Positions 36,201 through 51,845 of a DNA stretch of 64,000 nucleotides are shown piece by piece. The notes beneath the pieces are model-generated. The model ran no database searches, had not been told where the DNA came from, and worked only from the letters and a program-made list of their open reading frames with translations. The translations under genes and the position numbers were made by a program. The stretch's first letter is position 1, and each line of letters starts with the position of its first letter. Source of the stretch: Candidatus Binatia bacterium (GTDB lineage: Bacteria > Desulfobacterota > Binatia > UBA9968); contig DASYRN010000045.1 in assembly GCA_036004365.1 (NCBI GenBank), positions 7,637 through 71,636 of the forward strand, given 5' to 3'.

Positions 36201-36938
36201 TTAAGAAGGGTTCTTTCTTGTGGGAGGAACGATTCTAGCCTGTTCGATGGCGGGTTTGGCCGCTTCCTTATGAGGGCGAGCTAGCTGGTCTGGAGCGTCG
36301 GTCGTTTTAGGCTGACCTTCTATTGTTTGTCTTAGAATTTCCTCTTGCAGCGAACCTTTATTGTTCCCAGCTACGGGCTTTCCCGTCTCAATGTCGTCAT
36401 TGATGAAAACTGCGGCTGCAAAGACAGTCGTCCAGAGCCCATCTTTATTGCCAACGGCAGACTGAGTGATATTGGTAGTACGGACGATCTTGCCGGACAT
36501 CTTGAAAAGTTGCTCGCGCTCGTCCCAATCCAATTCAGGATCAAATTCAATCCCCAGGGTAGTCGCGAGCATGCTGGCGGCGAGGTCTTCCGCATATTCT
36601 CCCGCTCGTTCATCGGTTTCTCCAAACGAATGATGCTCGGAAAGATAACCGTGCATGGAAGAATCCGCGGGGATCGCCAAGCCGATAGAAGCTGCGATGA
36701 GACGATTTGGCTCGTTGTTACTTTCTCGATCATAAACGGCAAATACAATCTCTCCGGGCCGTAAGAGCTTTAATCCTTCCTCCTTGGAGATAATCTTGCA
36801 GGCTGGGGGATAGATGCTGGAGACGAGAACCAAATTGCAGTGGGCCAAGCCGGCAACCCGCAGCGCCATCTCAAAGGAGGCCAACCGTTCCTTATGAACG
36901 CCGACTCCTTTGGTGAAAAAAACTTTCTTAGGAACCAT
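36201..36938 (-). CDS. pdaD: Pyruvoyl-dependent arginine decarboxylase (PdaD family) with a ~90-aa C-terminal extension
   Basis: [45 protein letters not shown] matches the PdaD N-terminus; start set at MVPKK. The ORF also allows TTG or ATG starts 12-39 nt upstream. Confidence 0.75.
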
Positions 36939-37076
36939 ATGTGGCTGCATTTTAACATGACGAAAATGAGCTGACAAGAAAATTTCTTATCCTGAGATTA
37001 TTTTTATTGACATTCGCTTGCTCATGATCTAGAGGCTTAACAAGATCACCAAAACAAGTTGGAGGAGGTATCCACG

Positions 37077-41518: not shown

Positions 41519-41648
41519 TCCGAAAGATGTGGGCGAATTCAGATCTCCGCCTTGCCACACTCAGGCAGATGCGCGGTGAACTGTCTACCCCCGAAACCTG
41601 ACTTCTGAAACGCTGCGCCAAAACGGGAATGTAGAAGACTCGATGCGC

Positions 41649-42311
41649 TCAGTGGCCGGGGCTCTCCAAGACGGCGAGCGCGGCCTGGCAGCAGAGGATG
41701 TCCTGCTCGGCTCGGCTACCGCCGGCTACGCCGATGGCGCCGACGATCGCCGCGCCGTCAACGATCGCAATGCCTCCACCCGCCGGCATGATGCGACCGC
41801 GGTGCGAGATGACGAGGCTGCGAAACCAGGGGCGGCGCGCTTGGGGCGCCAACTCGGCGGTGGCCAGGTGAAAGGCGGCGGCCGTGTAGGCCTTATTGAA
41901 GGCGAGCTCTGCAGTCCTGGGCTCGGCTTGGTCCATCCGTCCGACGGCGATAGGAGTGCCAGCTTCATCTACGACCACGGCCGTCACCGCGATCCCCGCT
42001 CTTTCCGCGTAGGCGTGCGCTCGATGCACCATCTCCCATGCCTTGTCCACCGGAACCGGCCCAACTGCTGCTTTGTTCTTACGGAAGAAGCTGGCATTGA
42101 CCTCGATGGAGGCCTCATGCTCGGCGGGGAGCTTGGAATCGAGGAAGATCGCGTCCACCGGGCAGACGATCTCACACTGCTCGCACTCGATGCACACTTC
42201 GGGATCAACGTAGTGTTGTGGAGCCCCCGGGAGGGTATGAATGCAGGCGACCGGGCAGACGTCGACGCACGCCCCATCATTTGTACACAGCGAGGTGATA
42301 ATGTACGTCAC
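41649..42311 (-). CDS. Fusion protein: N-terminal 7Fe-type ([3Fe-4S][4Fe-4S]) ferredoxin plus C-terminal DUF336/GlcG (PduO-C-like, heme/corrinoid-binding) domain
   Basis: N-terminal CTNDGACVDVCP (C-x5-C-x3-CP) and CIECEQCEIVCP (C-x2-C-x2-C-x3-CP). C-terminal AVVVDEAGTPIAVGRMDQA...AFNKAYTAAAF...GGIAIV...GAIGVAGG matches GlcG/DUF336. Confidence 0.8.
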   Translation of the reverse strand: MTYIITSLCTNDGACVDVCPVACIHTLPGAPQHYVDPEVCIECEQCEIVCPVDAIFLDSKLPAEHEASIEVNASFFRKNKAAVGPVPVDKAWEMVHRAHAYAERAGIAVTAVVVDEAGTPIAVGRMDQAEPRTAELAFNKAYTAAAFHLATAELAPQARRPWFRSLVISHRGRIMPAGGGIAIVDGAAIVGAIGVAGGSRAEQDILCCQAALAVLESPGH

Positions 42312-42485
42312 GGAAATCCCTTCTACTAGGTAGCTTCAGAACTCCTCTGAACGTCATGCCAGCCGAGCCCGCGACAGCGGGCGAGAGCCGGAATCCAGGC
42401 AAATATAAGAAGTGCTGGATTTCCGCTTCCGCGGAAATGACGAACCCCGAGGGTCGATTCTTTGGCTGATTTCACACATAGGTGC

Positions 42486-43202
42486 CTATCCATCCGCCCT
42501 CAGCGGCAAATCGGTGCGAATGACGTTCGTCACATGGACGCGGGTCCCATATTTGGGAGTCACTAGCCTCCCGTTAGGGTTGAGAGTACCCAGCCCCGCC
42601 GCCGCGGCGAGCCGCTCGGCATTGGGATCCGGCGCTGCCGTGGCGCGAAAGCCAAGCTCTCTGATCCACGCGCTGAGAACGAAAGTGACGAACAGCCCGT
42701 TCTGCACCGGCACCTGGCCGCCGATGCCCGGGGCCTCTCGCGGGTCATAATCGGCTCGAACCGCACAGATGACGGCGAAGGGATACTGCTCGTCTTTCGA
42801 ATCCAATCTGGCGATACCCACCAGATCGGTGCCCAGGTAGCGGGCCAGCTCCTTGACATGGTTGGACGTGATCTCGGGCGTGTGGATGTCCGCTTTGGTC
42901 GGGAAGACGTTACCCTCGGGCGCACTGCGGATCAGCTCCGTCACCGAATTGGCCAGATCTTCCGGAGGCGTGTTGATGAAAAAATCCCAGTATGGGTCGC
43001 CTGCCCTGAGCCTGGTCGAAGGGTCGTGCTGGGAGCGTGTCTTCGGCCACGGGATTTTTAGCGGGCCCAGTCTGAGGGTCACTAAACGTCCCGCTTGACG
43101 AATCGGTTGGTATTCTCTTTCAGCGGAGCATAGTAGCCGATATCTCCCGCCACCTTTCCCGAGTTCGCCTCGTGCGCCGCGGTGCAACCGGCAACGGTAC
43201 AC
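42486..43202 (-). CDS. Truncated reductive-dehalogenase-like paralog (corrinoid-binding N-terminal part only, no Fe-S domain)
   Basis: ...HVKELARYLGTDLVGIARLD... and ...LAAAAGLGTLNPNGRLVTPKYGTRVHVTNVIRTDLPL align with the upstream full-length gene (HIKAVARYMGADVVAIARAH; AAGVGELGRNGLIINEKFGARIHMPDPIMTDLPL). It ends exactly where the ferredoxin domain should begin; 120 nt overlap with the upstream gene. Confidence 0.55.
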   Translation of the reverse strand: MYRCRLHRGARGELGKGGGRYRLLCSAEREYQPIRQAGRLVTLRLGPLKIPWPKTRSQHDPSTRLRAGDPYWDFFINTPPEDLANSVTELIRSAPEGNVFPTKADIHTPEITSNHVKELARYLGTDLVGIARLDSKDEQYPFAVICAVRADYDPREAPGIGGQVPVQNGLFVTFVLSAWIRELGFRATAAPDPNAERLAAAAGLGTLNPNGRLVTPKYGTRVHVTNVIRTDLPLRADG

Positions 43203-44383
43203 GCGTGCTCTCCGGGCTTGATGCCGGAGTCATACCCAAGCCAGCGCACCCGCTTCTGACTCACCACGCCCCAGAAGCGATCATCGATCGCCTTCAGCGC
43301 GTGCACGAGCGCCGGTCGCGCGGGGATAGGGCAGGTGCGCAGAGCCCAGACCGTAAGGCTGCGCCACCAAACGTTGGGTTTGGTGAACGGGCAAACGGTG
43401 GCGCAGGTCAGGCAGCTCATCCAGTGGTCGTGGGTGTACGGCCGCAGCTTATAGCAGGTCAGCCAGTTGATCTTGTACTTCTCGACGCCGTTGAAGACCA
43501 CCTTATCGCCGAAGGGGATGCTGTTGGTGGGACAGTTGACAGCGCATTTGCGGCAAATCTTGCAGAAGTCCTCGACGCCTATGTCGACGGGTTGGTCCGG
43601 CACCAGCGGGAGGTCGGTCATGATGGGATCGGGCATGTGGATGCGGGCACCGAACTTCTCGTTGATGATGAGTCCGTTTCGGCCCAGTTCGCCCACGCCG
43701 GCGGCCAGCCCGGCGGCCTGAGGGTTCGCCACGCCCCGTAGAGCGGTGTAACCCAGCTCCTTGACGTAGCCCTCCAGGGCCTTGAGGATCATGACACCTT
43801 TCATTTGAGAGACGTGGTAGGCCGCATCGCCGACGTGATGGCGGTGCGCCTGAAGCTTATCGTGGTCCCATGCGGTCGTCGTGACGATGATGTAGGGGAA
43901 CTTCCGCACCAGCTCCTCGGGAGTGCTTTGTTGGTACGCGTCCTCTGCCGTGCCGTCTTGCACGTAGCGGTTGCCAGCGTACATGAAGGATGGATGCGCC
44001 CTGGCGATGGCGACGACGTCAGCGCCCATATAACGGGCGACGGCCTTGATGTGGCGCGTCATCGCCGCGGGATCCGTCACTGGCACCTGCTTCGAGTTGA
44101 CCTTGCCCTTGCTGGCTTGGTTAATCACCGTGGTCAGGAAATGTCTGCGATCGGCGAAATGGTTCGGGGCCGACACCCGGGTAAGTGGATCTTTGGAGAT
44201 CGTGTTGCGGTACCAGTTGAAAAGGGCCTTCCCCAGCTCACCGCGCTGGTTTTTGGGATGCGGCGACTGGTTCATATCGACATTAGCGACAGGCCCCACG
44301 ACACGGGCTGACCGGCCGAGGTTGGGTACGGGCGGGATATCCAAGCCTCTTTGATTAACCTTGTCTAGCGTTGCGTTCCCCAT
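43082..44383 (-). CDS. Reductive-dehalogenase-like (RdhA/QueG superfamily) cobalamin + 2x[4Fe-4S] protein, no TAT signal
   Basis: 433 aa; N-terminal corrinoid-domain motif IKAVARYMGADVVAIA; Fe-S motifs CKICRKCAVNCP and C-x13-CLTCATVCP. The long first insert of the second motif is typical of RdhA. No twin-arginine leader. Confidence 0.7.
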   Translation of the reverse strand: MGNATLDKVNQRGLDIPPVPNLGRSARVVGPVANVDMNQSPHPKNQRGELGKALFNWYRNTISKDPLTRVSAPNHFADRRHFLTTVINQASKGKVNSKQVPVTDPAAMTRHIKAVARYMGADVVAIARAHPSFMYAGNRYVQDGTAEDAYQQSTPEELVRKFPYIIVTTTAWDHDKLQAHRHHVGDAAYHVSQMKGVMILKALEGYVKELGYTALRGVANPQAAGLAAGVGELGRNGLIINEKFGARIHMPDPIMTDLPLVPDQPVDIGVEDFCKICRKCAVNCPTNSIPFGDKVVFNGVEKYKINWLTCYKLRPYTHDHWMSCLTCATVCPFTKPNVWWRSLTVWALRTCPIPARPALVHALKAIDDRFWGVVSQKRVRWLGYDSGIKPGEHACTVAGCTAAHEANSGKVAGDIGYYAPLKENTNRFVKRDV

Positions 44384-44399
44384 GGCGAATTTTCCCTTC

Positions 44400-44495
44400 T
44401 TTTAGAAAGGATGAAGTATGAAATCGGAAGGATGAAGTGACAATGGCGCATTGACAGATGTTTTTTTATCCCTTAGCCTTCATCCTTTAGTTCTC
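44400..44495. repeat. Purine-rich GGATGAAG repeats forming an 11-bp inverted repeat (AAAGGATGAAG ... CTTCATCCTTT) with a ~62 nt loop
   Basis: Read directly at 44407-44417 and 44480-44490; intergenic between the GlcG-like and rdhA-like genes. Confidence 0.55.
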
Positions 44496-44592
44496 CTGTA
44501 TGTTTGCCACGAAAACCGACTCTGATGCAACTCCTTATATGTCATATGTCCCGTGCGCCTAGAGGGAGCCGGCGTCTGACGTGCATCCCATC

Positions 44593-44991
44593 TCAGGCAT
44601 AGGAGGCGAGAGCGGCTTCAGCGCAGCGCTGGTCCTGCTCTTCAGTACCACCCGCTACGGCGATGGCGCCCACAACATTGCCGCCCTCCACGATGGGCAA
44701 TGCGCCTGCACCGGGCATGATTCGACCGTTGCTGGAGACGACCAGGCTTTGAAACCATGTCTGCCCGGCAACTCCCGCCAACTCCTTGGTAGGCTGCTGG
44801 AAACTCGCTGCCGTGTAGGCTTTGTTGAGAGCAATTTCCACCGTAATGGGACGAGCACGGTCCATACGGCCTAGCGCGATCATACGGCCACTGTGGTCAA
44901 CGACCACAGCGGTGACTGCGATATCCAACTGCGTGGCCTCAAGGTGGGCGGTTCGCACCATCTGAATCGCTTTTTCTCCGGGGATAGCCAT
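44593..44991 (-). CDS. DUF336 / GlcG-like (PduO C-terminal-like, heme/corrinoid-binding) protein
   Basis: 132 aa; AVVVDHSGRMIALGRMDRA...ALNKAYTAASF...GALPIVEGGNVVGAIAVAGG GlcG signature. Confidence 0.8.
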   Translation of the reverse strand: MAIPGEKAIQMVRTAHLEATQLDIAVTAVVVDHSGRMIALGRMDRARPITVEIALNKAYTAASFQQPTKELAGVAGQTWFQSLVVSSNGRIMPGAGALPIVEGGNVVGAIAVAGGTEEQDQRCAEAALASYA

Positions 44992-51197: not shown

Positions 51198-51845
51198 CTA
51201 AAATTTCTTCCACGGGTTGATCCCCAACTCTACATGCTTTCGGTATAACATGGCTACATAGATAAAATCGAAAATGAATATGGACACATAAAGAAAGTTC
51301 AGAAGAACCGAGGCGGGAAAGCGAAGAAAAAACAGTATCGACGGCAATAAAGTTCCGAGCATCTTAAATAAGGCTATATAAATCGACTGGCCACTCACGT
51401 CTCTCCGATTCAGCAGCATCGATATAAACAAAACAGACATCATAAGATTTTGCCCGAAGGCTGCGTACTTGCCGTCCCAGTCTTTGAACTCATAGGTTAT
51501 GGCCAGGATGGCGCCAAAACTTAGGATTAGCGTTACAAGGAAAGTAAGATAGAAAAAGCGCGCCGGCAGTATTTGATTCAAGGCCTTCCCTCCGAAGCGG
51601 AGAGTTTGAAAGACGATGATCGTATCAAAGGCAAACCAAGCGATATTGATATAATTCTGAGGAGGCTCGTGCGGGTGCATGAAGGAAAATATAAATTCCC
51701 AGGAGATATTCGCCGATAGAGCCGCTACCGGCATCCCATAAGTCTTGTCCTGGAATCCCACTCGGAGGATCAAGATATAGGCCAAGGTCCAGAAGACTCC
51801 CGATCCGATCTGCAAGCTCAAGCTTATCTCAGGAGGAACCGCCAT
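51198..51845 (-). CDS. AT-rich polytopic membrane protein of unknown function
   Basis: About 6 predicted TM helices; local GC (~40-45%) far below the window average. Confidence 0.5.
   Translation of the reverse strand: MAVPPEISLSLQIGSGVFWTLAYILILRVGFQDKTYGMPVAALSANISWEFIFSFMHPHEPPQNYINIAWFAFDTIIVFQTLRFGGKALNQILPARFFYLTFLVTLILSFGAILAITYEFKDWDGKYAAFGQNLMMSVLFISMLLNRRDVSGQSIYIALFKMLGTLLPSILFFLRFPASVLLNFLYVSIFIFDFIYVAMLYRKHVELGINPWKKF

Follow-up and report, generated by a model that had tools for sequence, protein, structure and literature searches.

What does a reductive dehalogenase-like protein do that is encoded together with a degenerate copy of its own core, a ferredoxin, and two DUF336 proteins? 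This question is raised by four consecutive open reading frames (ORFs) on the minus strand of a 64,000-nt stretch of DNA from Candidatus Binatia bacterium (contig DASYRN010000045.1)—hereafter called the window, to whose positions all coordinates refer. The genes are named A, B, C, and D, and they lie where, and in the order in which, a preliminary description of the sequence had placed them. Gene A (44593–44991) encodes a free-standing, cytoplasmic DUF336/HbpS-like protein of 132 residues. Gene B (43082–44383) encodes a 433-residue RdhA-like protein—the predicted catalytic subunit—with a corrinoid-type core, a domain for two [4Fe-4S] clusters, and no twin-arginine translocation (Tat) signal. 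Gene C (42486–43082) encodes a small subunit of 198 residues, which is a degenerate copy of the RdhA core without the Fe-S domain, and gene D (41649–42311) a 220-residue fusion of a 7Fe ferredoxin with a DUF336 domain. On balance, we read this cassette as a self-contained, horizontally spread operon for a cytoplasmic, multisubunit class-III cobalamin/[4Fe-4S] reductase of the RdhA/QueG superfamily, a reading that we hold with slightly more confidence than doubt.

A conserved four-gene operon

In a scan with one genome per species, 80 loci were found, every one in metagenome-assembled genomes (MAGs) of uncultured organisms. The hosts belong to Binatia—many of them carrying the labels Deltaproteobacteria or Syntrophobacter—and to Methylomirabilota/Rokubacteria, Acidobacteriota, Chloroflexota/Dehalococcoidia, Eremiobacterota, Eisenbacteria, and Udaeobacter. 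Where B is at least 62% identical to the B of the window, it is adjoined by A in 62 of 66, by C in 63 of 64, and by D in 54 of 57 of these MAGs. A second scan started from D on metagenome contigs, and yielded relatives at identities of at least 73% only. Here, C adjoins in 54 of 55 cases, B in 33 of 35, and A in 29 of 30. The same gene order thus recurs in some 70 genomes at the species level and on some 55 independent contigs from metagenomes. This arrangement is far beyond chance, and A-B-C-D is a conserved operon. A more distant branch of Chloroflexota MAGs, whose B is 49–61% identical to that of the window, has C (8/9) and D (6/8) next to B, and A at none of 10 loci. Hence, B-C-D is the core of the operon and A an addition in the main clade.

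Over complete loci, the median identity is highest for A (89%), followed by B (79%), D (75%), and C (66%), and the identities of the four proteins covary across loci (r = 0.93 for B versus D). Between phyla, B retains 75–85% identity on contigs of 70–250 kb from Binatia, Acidobacteriota, Methylomirabilota, and Chloroflexota—for example, 85% on a 250-kb Acidiferrales contig, 78% on a 129-kb contig of Rokubacteria, and 75% on a 71-kb Chloroflexota contig. Such interphylum identities of 75–85% on long contigs suggest that the cassette has spread horizontally under strong purifying selection. Its base composition points to horizontal acquisition, too: the GC content of the cassette is 60.6% versus 53.8% in the rest of the window, and reaches 75–79% at the third codon positions of B, C, and D. 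Clustering at 90% identity gives 1,151 clusters for B and 1,413 for D.

The flanking genes differ between loci, and clustering of the neighbors across loci gave no additional conserved gene. Only an NMT1/SsuA-like binding protein is a frequent neighbor (24 loci), and its position and strand vary from locus to locus. The operon is hence autonomous. An MmgE/PrpD gene and a luciferase-like monooxygenase (LLM) gene in the window had earlier been suspected to belong to the same catabolic module; as a PrpD-like gene is near 6 of 81 loci and the Mer-like LLM type of the window near none, both were rejected as members. A catabolic context that is conserved across loci was not seen. Near the cassette, neither genes for cobalamin biosynthesis, cobalamin transport, or an adenosyltransferase nor a B12 riboswitch were found. 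The same holds for a conserved reductase gene, the ferredoxin being present as the N terminus of D. An Rfam scan of the window and of the cassette gave zero matches, and the spacers between A and B and between C and D show no conservation and fold no better than shuffles. On these grounds, a riboswitch or conserved leader in the cassette was rejected.

Individual loci deviate from this layout. Some Chloroflexota/Dehalococcoidia genomes carry two cassette copies. In one locus (L084, 4693–9834), two cassettes lie head-to-head, one with B split into two high-scoring segment pairs and the other without D, and in another (L086, 3601–13599), an interrupted B is found together with further rdhA-like paralogues. 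Rearrangements are rare: in one locus (L061, 4–1943), D precedes B and C was not found, and two loci (L049 and L054) have no D within the available flank.

The RdhA-like protein B and its partner C

B scores 147.5 bits (E 7.6e-43) against the reductive dehalogenase model TIGR02486 and 50.2 bits against the QueG model TIGR00276, whose cut-off is 200. Among the sequences of the Protein Data Bank (PDB), the matches are NpRdhA with E values of about 1e-31 to 1e-30, PceA with 6e-29, and QueG with 1e-9. The QueG_DUF1730 domain (PF08331) gave no match in B at E ≤ 10, compared with 85.7 bits for E. coli QueG in the same scan. The structure of B was modeled with AlphaFold2 on an 86-sequence alignment, to which 73 diverse relatives had been added; the model has a predicted local distance difference test (pLDDT) score of 79.8 and a predicted template modeling (TM) score of 0.82. 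Foldseek matches it to NpRdhA (E 6.5e-22, TM score 0.67), to PceA (TM score ~0.5–0.55), and to QueG (TM score 0.36). As in RdhAs, the modeled core fold is followed by a ferredoxin-like domain with two [4Fe-4S] cysteine motifs. Judged by sequence comparison and modeled fold, B is a member of the RdhA branch rather than a QueG, a distinction that the preliminary description had called uncertain. PF13486 does not match B, nor does it match the canonical cytosolic relatives P0258 and P0265, and its absence is hence uninformative.

An RR twin-arginine motif occurs in none of 16 clade members, B included, and the cassette contains no gene for a small membrane protein of the rdhB anchor type; B is cytoplasmic. 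In a library of 1.84 billion representatives, B has homologues in only 64 clusters at E ≤ 1e-30. The nearest full-length outgroup protein, P0247, is 39% identical to B, and ordinary RdhA-like proteins follow at ~30–35%. In NCBI and JGI, the cassette genes are labeled "reductive dehalogenase," "heme-binding protein," and "ferredoxin."

For the residue-level comparison, 14 clade members were aligned with 70 diverse outgroup relatives using MAFFT, and conservation was scored over 86 RdhA-family sequences. The first conserved core-domain motif, IKAVARYMGADVVAIA (residues 112–127; 44003–44050), contains K113, G120, and A121, each conserved in at least 90% of the sequences. In the first [4Fe-4S] motif, CKICRKCAVNCP (residues 274–285; 43529–43564), C274, C277, C280, and C284 are invariant in 86 of 86. 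In the second, C-x13-C-x2-C-x3-CP (residues 310–332; 43388–43456), C310 is invariant and C324, C327, and C331 are conserved in at least 90%. These motifs, as well as the lack of a twin-arginine leader, had been noted before and stand.

The active site is where B departs from its relatives. Payne et al. have described a tyrosine above the corrin as the sole active-site residue common to PceA, NpRdhA, and QueG, which in RdhAs pairs with Arg305 (PceA) or Lys488 (NpRdhA) (PMC4646009). In B, this tyrosine and its partner are replaced by Gln193 and His249. Gln193 closes the active-site helix DAAYHVSQ (residues 186–193; 43805–43828) and aligns with Y426 of NpRdhA and Y246 of PceA; its column holds Gln in 14 of 14 clade members and Tyr in 66 of the 70 outgroup sequences. 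His249, the first residue of HMPD (residues 249–252; 43628–43639), aligns with K488 of NpRdhA and R305 of PceA; here, the clade has His throughout (14/14) and the outgroup 57 Arg and 9 Lys. Three independent alignments agree on both positions—phmmer against NpRdhA, a profile search against PceA, and MAFFT with the 70 relatives—and the register is anchored by an ungapped helix ending in an invariant LGY, in which the tyrosine lies 18 residues before the Gly in PceA and NpRdhA. The clade has acquired invariant residues of its own as well. Tyr189-His190, one helical turn upstream of Gln193, stands where relatives have Thr/Ser-Gly, and Asp252 is a one-residue insertion absent from all 70 outgroup sequences. 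Arg314 within the second Fe-S motif (14/14 in the clade) aligns with R552 of NpRdhA, while 58 of 70 outgroup sequences carry Trp at this position. With the Tyr and Arg/Lys residues replaced and a new Tyr-His pair and Asp fixed, the reaction of B probably differs from textbook dehalogenation, and the label "dehalogenase" is doubtful.

The C-terminal extension of B (residues 372–433; 43085–43270) is clade specific: C395-x4-C400-x3-H404 and the terminal GYYAPLKENTNRFVKR are invariant in it, nothing in the outgroup corresponds to it, and it is modeled at a pLDDT below 50. C351 is invariant, too. The tail could bind a further metal or serve as a peptide for docking.

Gene C had been described as a truncated paralogue and was listed as an ORF of 238 residues from an upstream GTG. 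Since its homologues start directly after the rdhA-like stop codon, we place the start at the GTG at 43082, which gives 198 residues and overlaps the TAG stop codon of B by one base (TAGTG). C shares 27% identity with residues 50–263 of B (E 1e-20), and its C terminus (...IRTDLPLRADG) corresponds to the point where the Fe-S domain of B begins. It matches NpRdhA twice, in the N-terminal vestigial domain (102–242) and in the active core (371–528). In B numbering, C retains the fold residues K113, G120, G211, G229, G231, G245, and T256. Three residues are lost from it: Y135, E232, and R235. Of these, R235 is invariant in 86 of 86 RdhA-family sequences. Homologues of C in an Acidobacteriota MAG, on a Chloroflexota contig, and on a 2.35-Mb contig share 65–74% identity with it. 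A decayed fragment was hence rejected, as C is conserved across phyla and coupled to B. By these comparisons, C is a conserved, translationally coupled subunit and the counterpart of the vestigial core that is fused in NpRdhA.

According to Fisher et al., catabolic RdhAs carry such a vestigial duplication of the core domain, which does not bind cobalamin and mimics the dimer interface of PceA (PMC10463259). A related protein of 603 residues, P0258, has C-like and B-like parts fused into one chain, and this "Rosetta stone" supports a physical contact between B and C.

Among characterized systems, the catabolic, cytoplasmic RdhAs NpRdhA (PDB 4RAS/6ZY1), BhbA, and JtRdhA are the closest match to B by sequence and structure. 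Like these, B has two [4Fe-4S] motifs and comes without a Tat signal and without RdhB, and its Arg314 corresponds to Arg552 of NpRdhA. The cassette also appears to rely on a vestigial core copy and a ferredoxin-type donor, as catabolic RdhAs do (PMC10463259). However, the architecture differs. Whereas NpRdhA bears its vestigial domain as an N-terminal fusion, B has a single core and the vestigial copy is the separate, coupled downstream gene C. Also unlike NpRdhA, B replaces Tyr426 and Lys488 as described above and adds the Tyr-His pair, the Asp insertion, and a Cys/His-rich C-terminal tail. It lacks the PDOR reductase domain of catabolic RdhAs. The dedicated ferredoxin of the cassette is joined to a DUF336 domain in D, and gene A adds another DUF336 protein. 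B and C together are probably the functional equivalent of the catabolic duplication. With PceA of Sulfurospirillum (4UQU; PceA2B2, 8Q4H), B shares the core fold and the Fe-S motifs, and a B-C pair would presumably mimic the PceA dimer. Unlike the PceA system, the cassette comes without a Tat leader, an RdhB anchor, or RdhT/K/C accessory genes, and the Gln and His of B stand in place of Tyr246 and Arg305.

Ferredoxin, DUF336 proteins, and other features of the window

The N-terminal domain of D (residues 1–80; 42072–42311) is a 7Fe ferredoxin domain—[3Fe-4S] plus [4Fe-4S]—by its matches to 1BC6 (E 9e-19) and FdxA_Actino (E 2.4e-20). Its sequence follows the 7Fe pattern C-x5-C-x3-CP ... C-x2-C-x2-C-x3-CP, and its eight cysteines (C9, C15, C19, C23, C40, C43, C46, and C50) are all invariant across 62 homologues. 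Against the NCBIfam FdxA models, the scores fall short of the cut-offs (72.7 versus 125), which is expected of a fusion. The remainder of D (residues 86–216; 41664–42056) is a DUF336/HbpS-like domain, with residues 89–213 scoring 98.7 bits against PF03928 compared with 101.7 bits for A and a cut-off of 25. The ferredoxin–DUF336 fusion, which had been proposed from the sequence, is thus corroborated by both 1BC6 and PF03928. D is 100% identical to a deposited "heme-binding protein [Candidatus Binatia bacterium]."

A look at the next relatives helps to place these partners. The sister clade of B (39% identical; L087, 6001–7501, and also L088 and L089) encodes a free ferredoxin of 84 residues 4 nt downstream of its RdhA-like gene, which is 39% identical to the N-terminal domain of D over the whole length of the ferredoxin. 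The dedicated 7Fe ferredoxin hence appears to be the ancestral partner, and this homology supports the ferredoxin of D as the electron donor of B. These sister loci show neither a C-like gene nor DUF336; their neighbors are a TctABC transporter, an aldehyde:ferredoxin oxidoreductase, and a polysaccharide-deacetylase-like gene. P0247, from this clade, also lacks the catalytic Tyr and Arg. The next outgroup protein, P0265, has the canonical Tyr and Arg and lies beside a CoA ligase and UbiD, again without DUF336. The association of DUF336 with rdhA-like genes pointed out in the preliminary description is hence strong within the B clade and a trait specific to it, and it is not general to RdhAs.

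Proteins of the DUF336 type form obligate oligomers, and in the simplest structural reading, A and D would assemble into a mixed oligomer by which the ferredoxin is scaffolded or docked. In the PDB, A matches OrfY of the Klebsiella dha regulon best (2A2L; E 1.4e-19), followed by PduO-C, HbpS, NahX, and EfgA. This regulon encodes the B12-dependent glycerol dehydratase. Like PduO-C (5CX7), OrfY, and HbpS, both A and the C terminus of D belong to PF03928, and like PduO-C and OrfY, they adjoin an enzyme of the B12 family (PMC4923194). Unlike in those systems, this enzyme is RdhA-like and not a diol or glycerol dehydratase, and the fusion partner in D is a 7Fe ferredoxin and not an adenosyltransferase. 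PduO-C is needed for efficient B12-dependent use of 1,2-propanediol; it binds heme via His18 and aquocobalamin only weakly, while a Kd of 34 µM for aquocobalamin is cited for HbpS (PMC4923194). That the DUF336 proteins act as corrinoid chaperones is conjecture.

In the library that was searched, no paper connects reductive dehalogenases to DUF336, GlcG, or HbpS, in agreement with the earlier remark that such an accessory set had not been described, and searches on NahX and on reductive dehalogenases in Binatia or Rokubacteria returned nothing relevant. A recent classification of RdhAs into respiratory, transmembrane, cytosolic, and "novel clade" groups does not mention such partners.

Other features of the window can be described briefly. 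The spacer between A and B (44384–44592, 209 nt) contains an inverted repeat, GGATGAAGG...CCTTCATCC (folding versus shuffles, z = -1.2). In L050 and L062, short matches to this repeat are found just past the end of gene A; in L021, they are located elsewhere. On the plus strand, long ORFs run antisense to D (41643–42329, 228 residues) and to B (43172–43741, 189 residues). These are likely artefacts of the high GC content and cluster across loci because the sense genes are conserved. A 215-residue ORF on the minus strand (51198–51845) matches the Pyr4-like transmembrane terpene cyclases of PF25129 (E 9e-30). Such cyclases are best known from fungal meroterpenoid pathways and are unusual in a Binatia genome. 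Upstream of the region, and unrelated to the cassette, lies a minus-strand gene for a pyruvoyl-dependent arginine decarboxylase (36201–36977; PF01862, E 2.6e-60).

Possible functions of the cassette

How might the four proteins work together? B would be the catalytic subunit, whose RdhA-fold core presumably holds a corrinoid in the base-off state and which carries two [4Fe-4S] clusters. C, a copy of this core without catalytic activity, would pair with B to an αβ enzyme, in the position that is occupied in respiratory PceA by the second monomer or in NpRdhA by the fused vestigial domain. Electrons might pass from a cellular reductase to the 7Fe ferredoxin of D, from there to the [4Fe-4S] clusters of B, and via the cobalt to the substrate. 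The DUF336 domain of D and A would most likely form a hetero-oligomer, which docks the ferredoxin on the enzyme, handles a tetrapyrrole (corrinoid or heme), or both. The reaction would be the reduction of one specific compound that is widespread in soil. The loss of the dyad, the lack of a conserved catabolic context, and the conservation across phyla together point to a single defined substrate and possibly to a nondehalogenating chemistry. For the latter, QueG—a member of the same class-III cobalamin/Fe-S superfamily—provides a precedent with this fold. A pairing of a B12-binding module with an inactive, nonbinding homologue is likewise known from human MMACHC-MMADHC (CblC-CblD), although MMACHC is very distant from B (TM score 0.25), lacks an Fe-S domain, and has B12 as its substrate.

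Several points weigh against this reading. The score of B against TIGR02486 stays below the curated cut-off of 160.35, and the binding of a corrinoid is presumed from the fold and family of B only. The contacts between B and C and between A and D are what we infer. Tyr189-His190 could stand in for the missing tyrosine, which would leave ordinary dehalogenation possible. Some neighborhoods contain aromatic-catabolic genes (UbiD, Rieske, Amidohydro_2), and the distant Chloroflexota clade without A makes A dispensable for the core function. A tetrapyrrole role of DUF336 is weakly grounded: His18, the heme ligand of PduO-C, aligns with Ile9 of A and with a Trp of D, and A has no invariant His, which makes a PduO-like ligation of heme unlikely. 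Other DUF336 proteins, such as EfgA, sense small molecules.

The most serious rival to a reductase with a new activity is an ordinary catabolic reductive dehalogenase, which we consider possible, though rather unlikely. B would dehalogenate natural halogenated aromatics in the cytoplasm, with D as donor, A and D as corrinoid chaperones, and Tyr189-His190 and His249 as proton donors in place of the usual Tyr and Lys/Arg. NpRdhA and PceA being the closest solved structures fits this well, as do the match of Arg314 to Arg552 of NpRdhA, the lack of a Tat signal as in catabolic RdhAs, the equivalent of the vestigial domain, and the aromatic-degradation genes in some flanks. Yet an invariant Gln takes the position of the tyrosine that 66 of 70 relatives conserve and that is described as common to PceA, NpRdhA, and QueG (PMC4646009), and a His that of the Arg/Lys. 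A conserved catabolic context is missing, and RdhA paralogues usually diverge rapidly, in contrast to the 75–90% identity seen here across phyla.

The independence from any catabolic context would suit two further explanations. In one, B12 itself is the substrate: B and C would strip its upper ligands reductively, similar to MMACHC and MMADHC, and DUF336 would receive or deliver the corrinoid, a role also suspected for the DUF336 domain of PduO. The RdhA core fold is shared by MMACHC, as noted in PMC4646009, albeit as a weak match to B; MMADHC (9mrs) is likewise a nonbinding partner of the same fold, DUF336 recurs beside B12-handling enzymes (PMC4923194), and the dyad that protonates the substrate is lost. 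Against such a corrinoid-processing role stands the full two-cluster ferredoxin domain that B retains, and its fold is far closer to RdhAs (E 1e-22) than to MMACHC (6e-3). Furthermore, genes of cobalamin biosynthesis, transport, or adenosylation and a B12 riboswitch are missing nearby, and PduO-C bound heme strongly and cobalamin weakly. We regard this role as improbable. Even less credible—to a degree that we hardly count it—is a divergent epoxyqueuosine reductase QueG for tRNA modification. B belongs to the same superfamily and matches TIGR00276 weakly, and its Tyr-His pair recalls the D-Y-H motif of QueG (PMC4646009); the HMMER alignment of B to E. coli QueG starts at about residue 227, downstream of this pair. 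However, the distribution is patchy and resembles horizontal transfer and not a housekeeping gene, and B lacks both DUF1730 and the tRNA-binding HEAT parts. Given the low score against the QueG model, the absence of DUF1730, and the TM score of 0.36 versus 0.67 for NpRdhA, QueG was rejected for B.

To our knowledge, only a handful of class-III B12 enzymes have been characterized, namely PceA, NpRdhA and its relatives, and QueG. The clade of B is very abundant and strongly conserved in at least six uncultured soil phyla and differs from all characterized members in its catalytic positions. Going beyond the multisubunit reductase that we favor, this clade might form a third functional branch of class-III cobalamin enzymes, with a new Co(I)-dependent reduction at a Gln/His/Tyr-His/Asp site and with DUF336 proteins as obligatory subunits for redox or cofactor handling—a proposal that we put forward tentatively and with more doubt than conviction. 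If true, it would provide the first defined biochemical role for DUF336 beside a B12 enzyme.

The cassette brings along its own candidate electron donor; for NpRdhA, such a component has proved difficult to find (PMC10463259). It also makes a clean system for the role of DUF336 beside B12 enzymes, a question that is still open for PduO-C and OrfY. Metagenome surveys that count genes of the B type as "reductive dehalogenases" may over-call the dehalogenation potential of soils.

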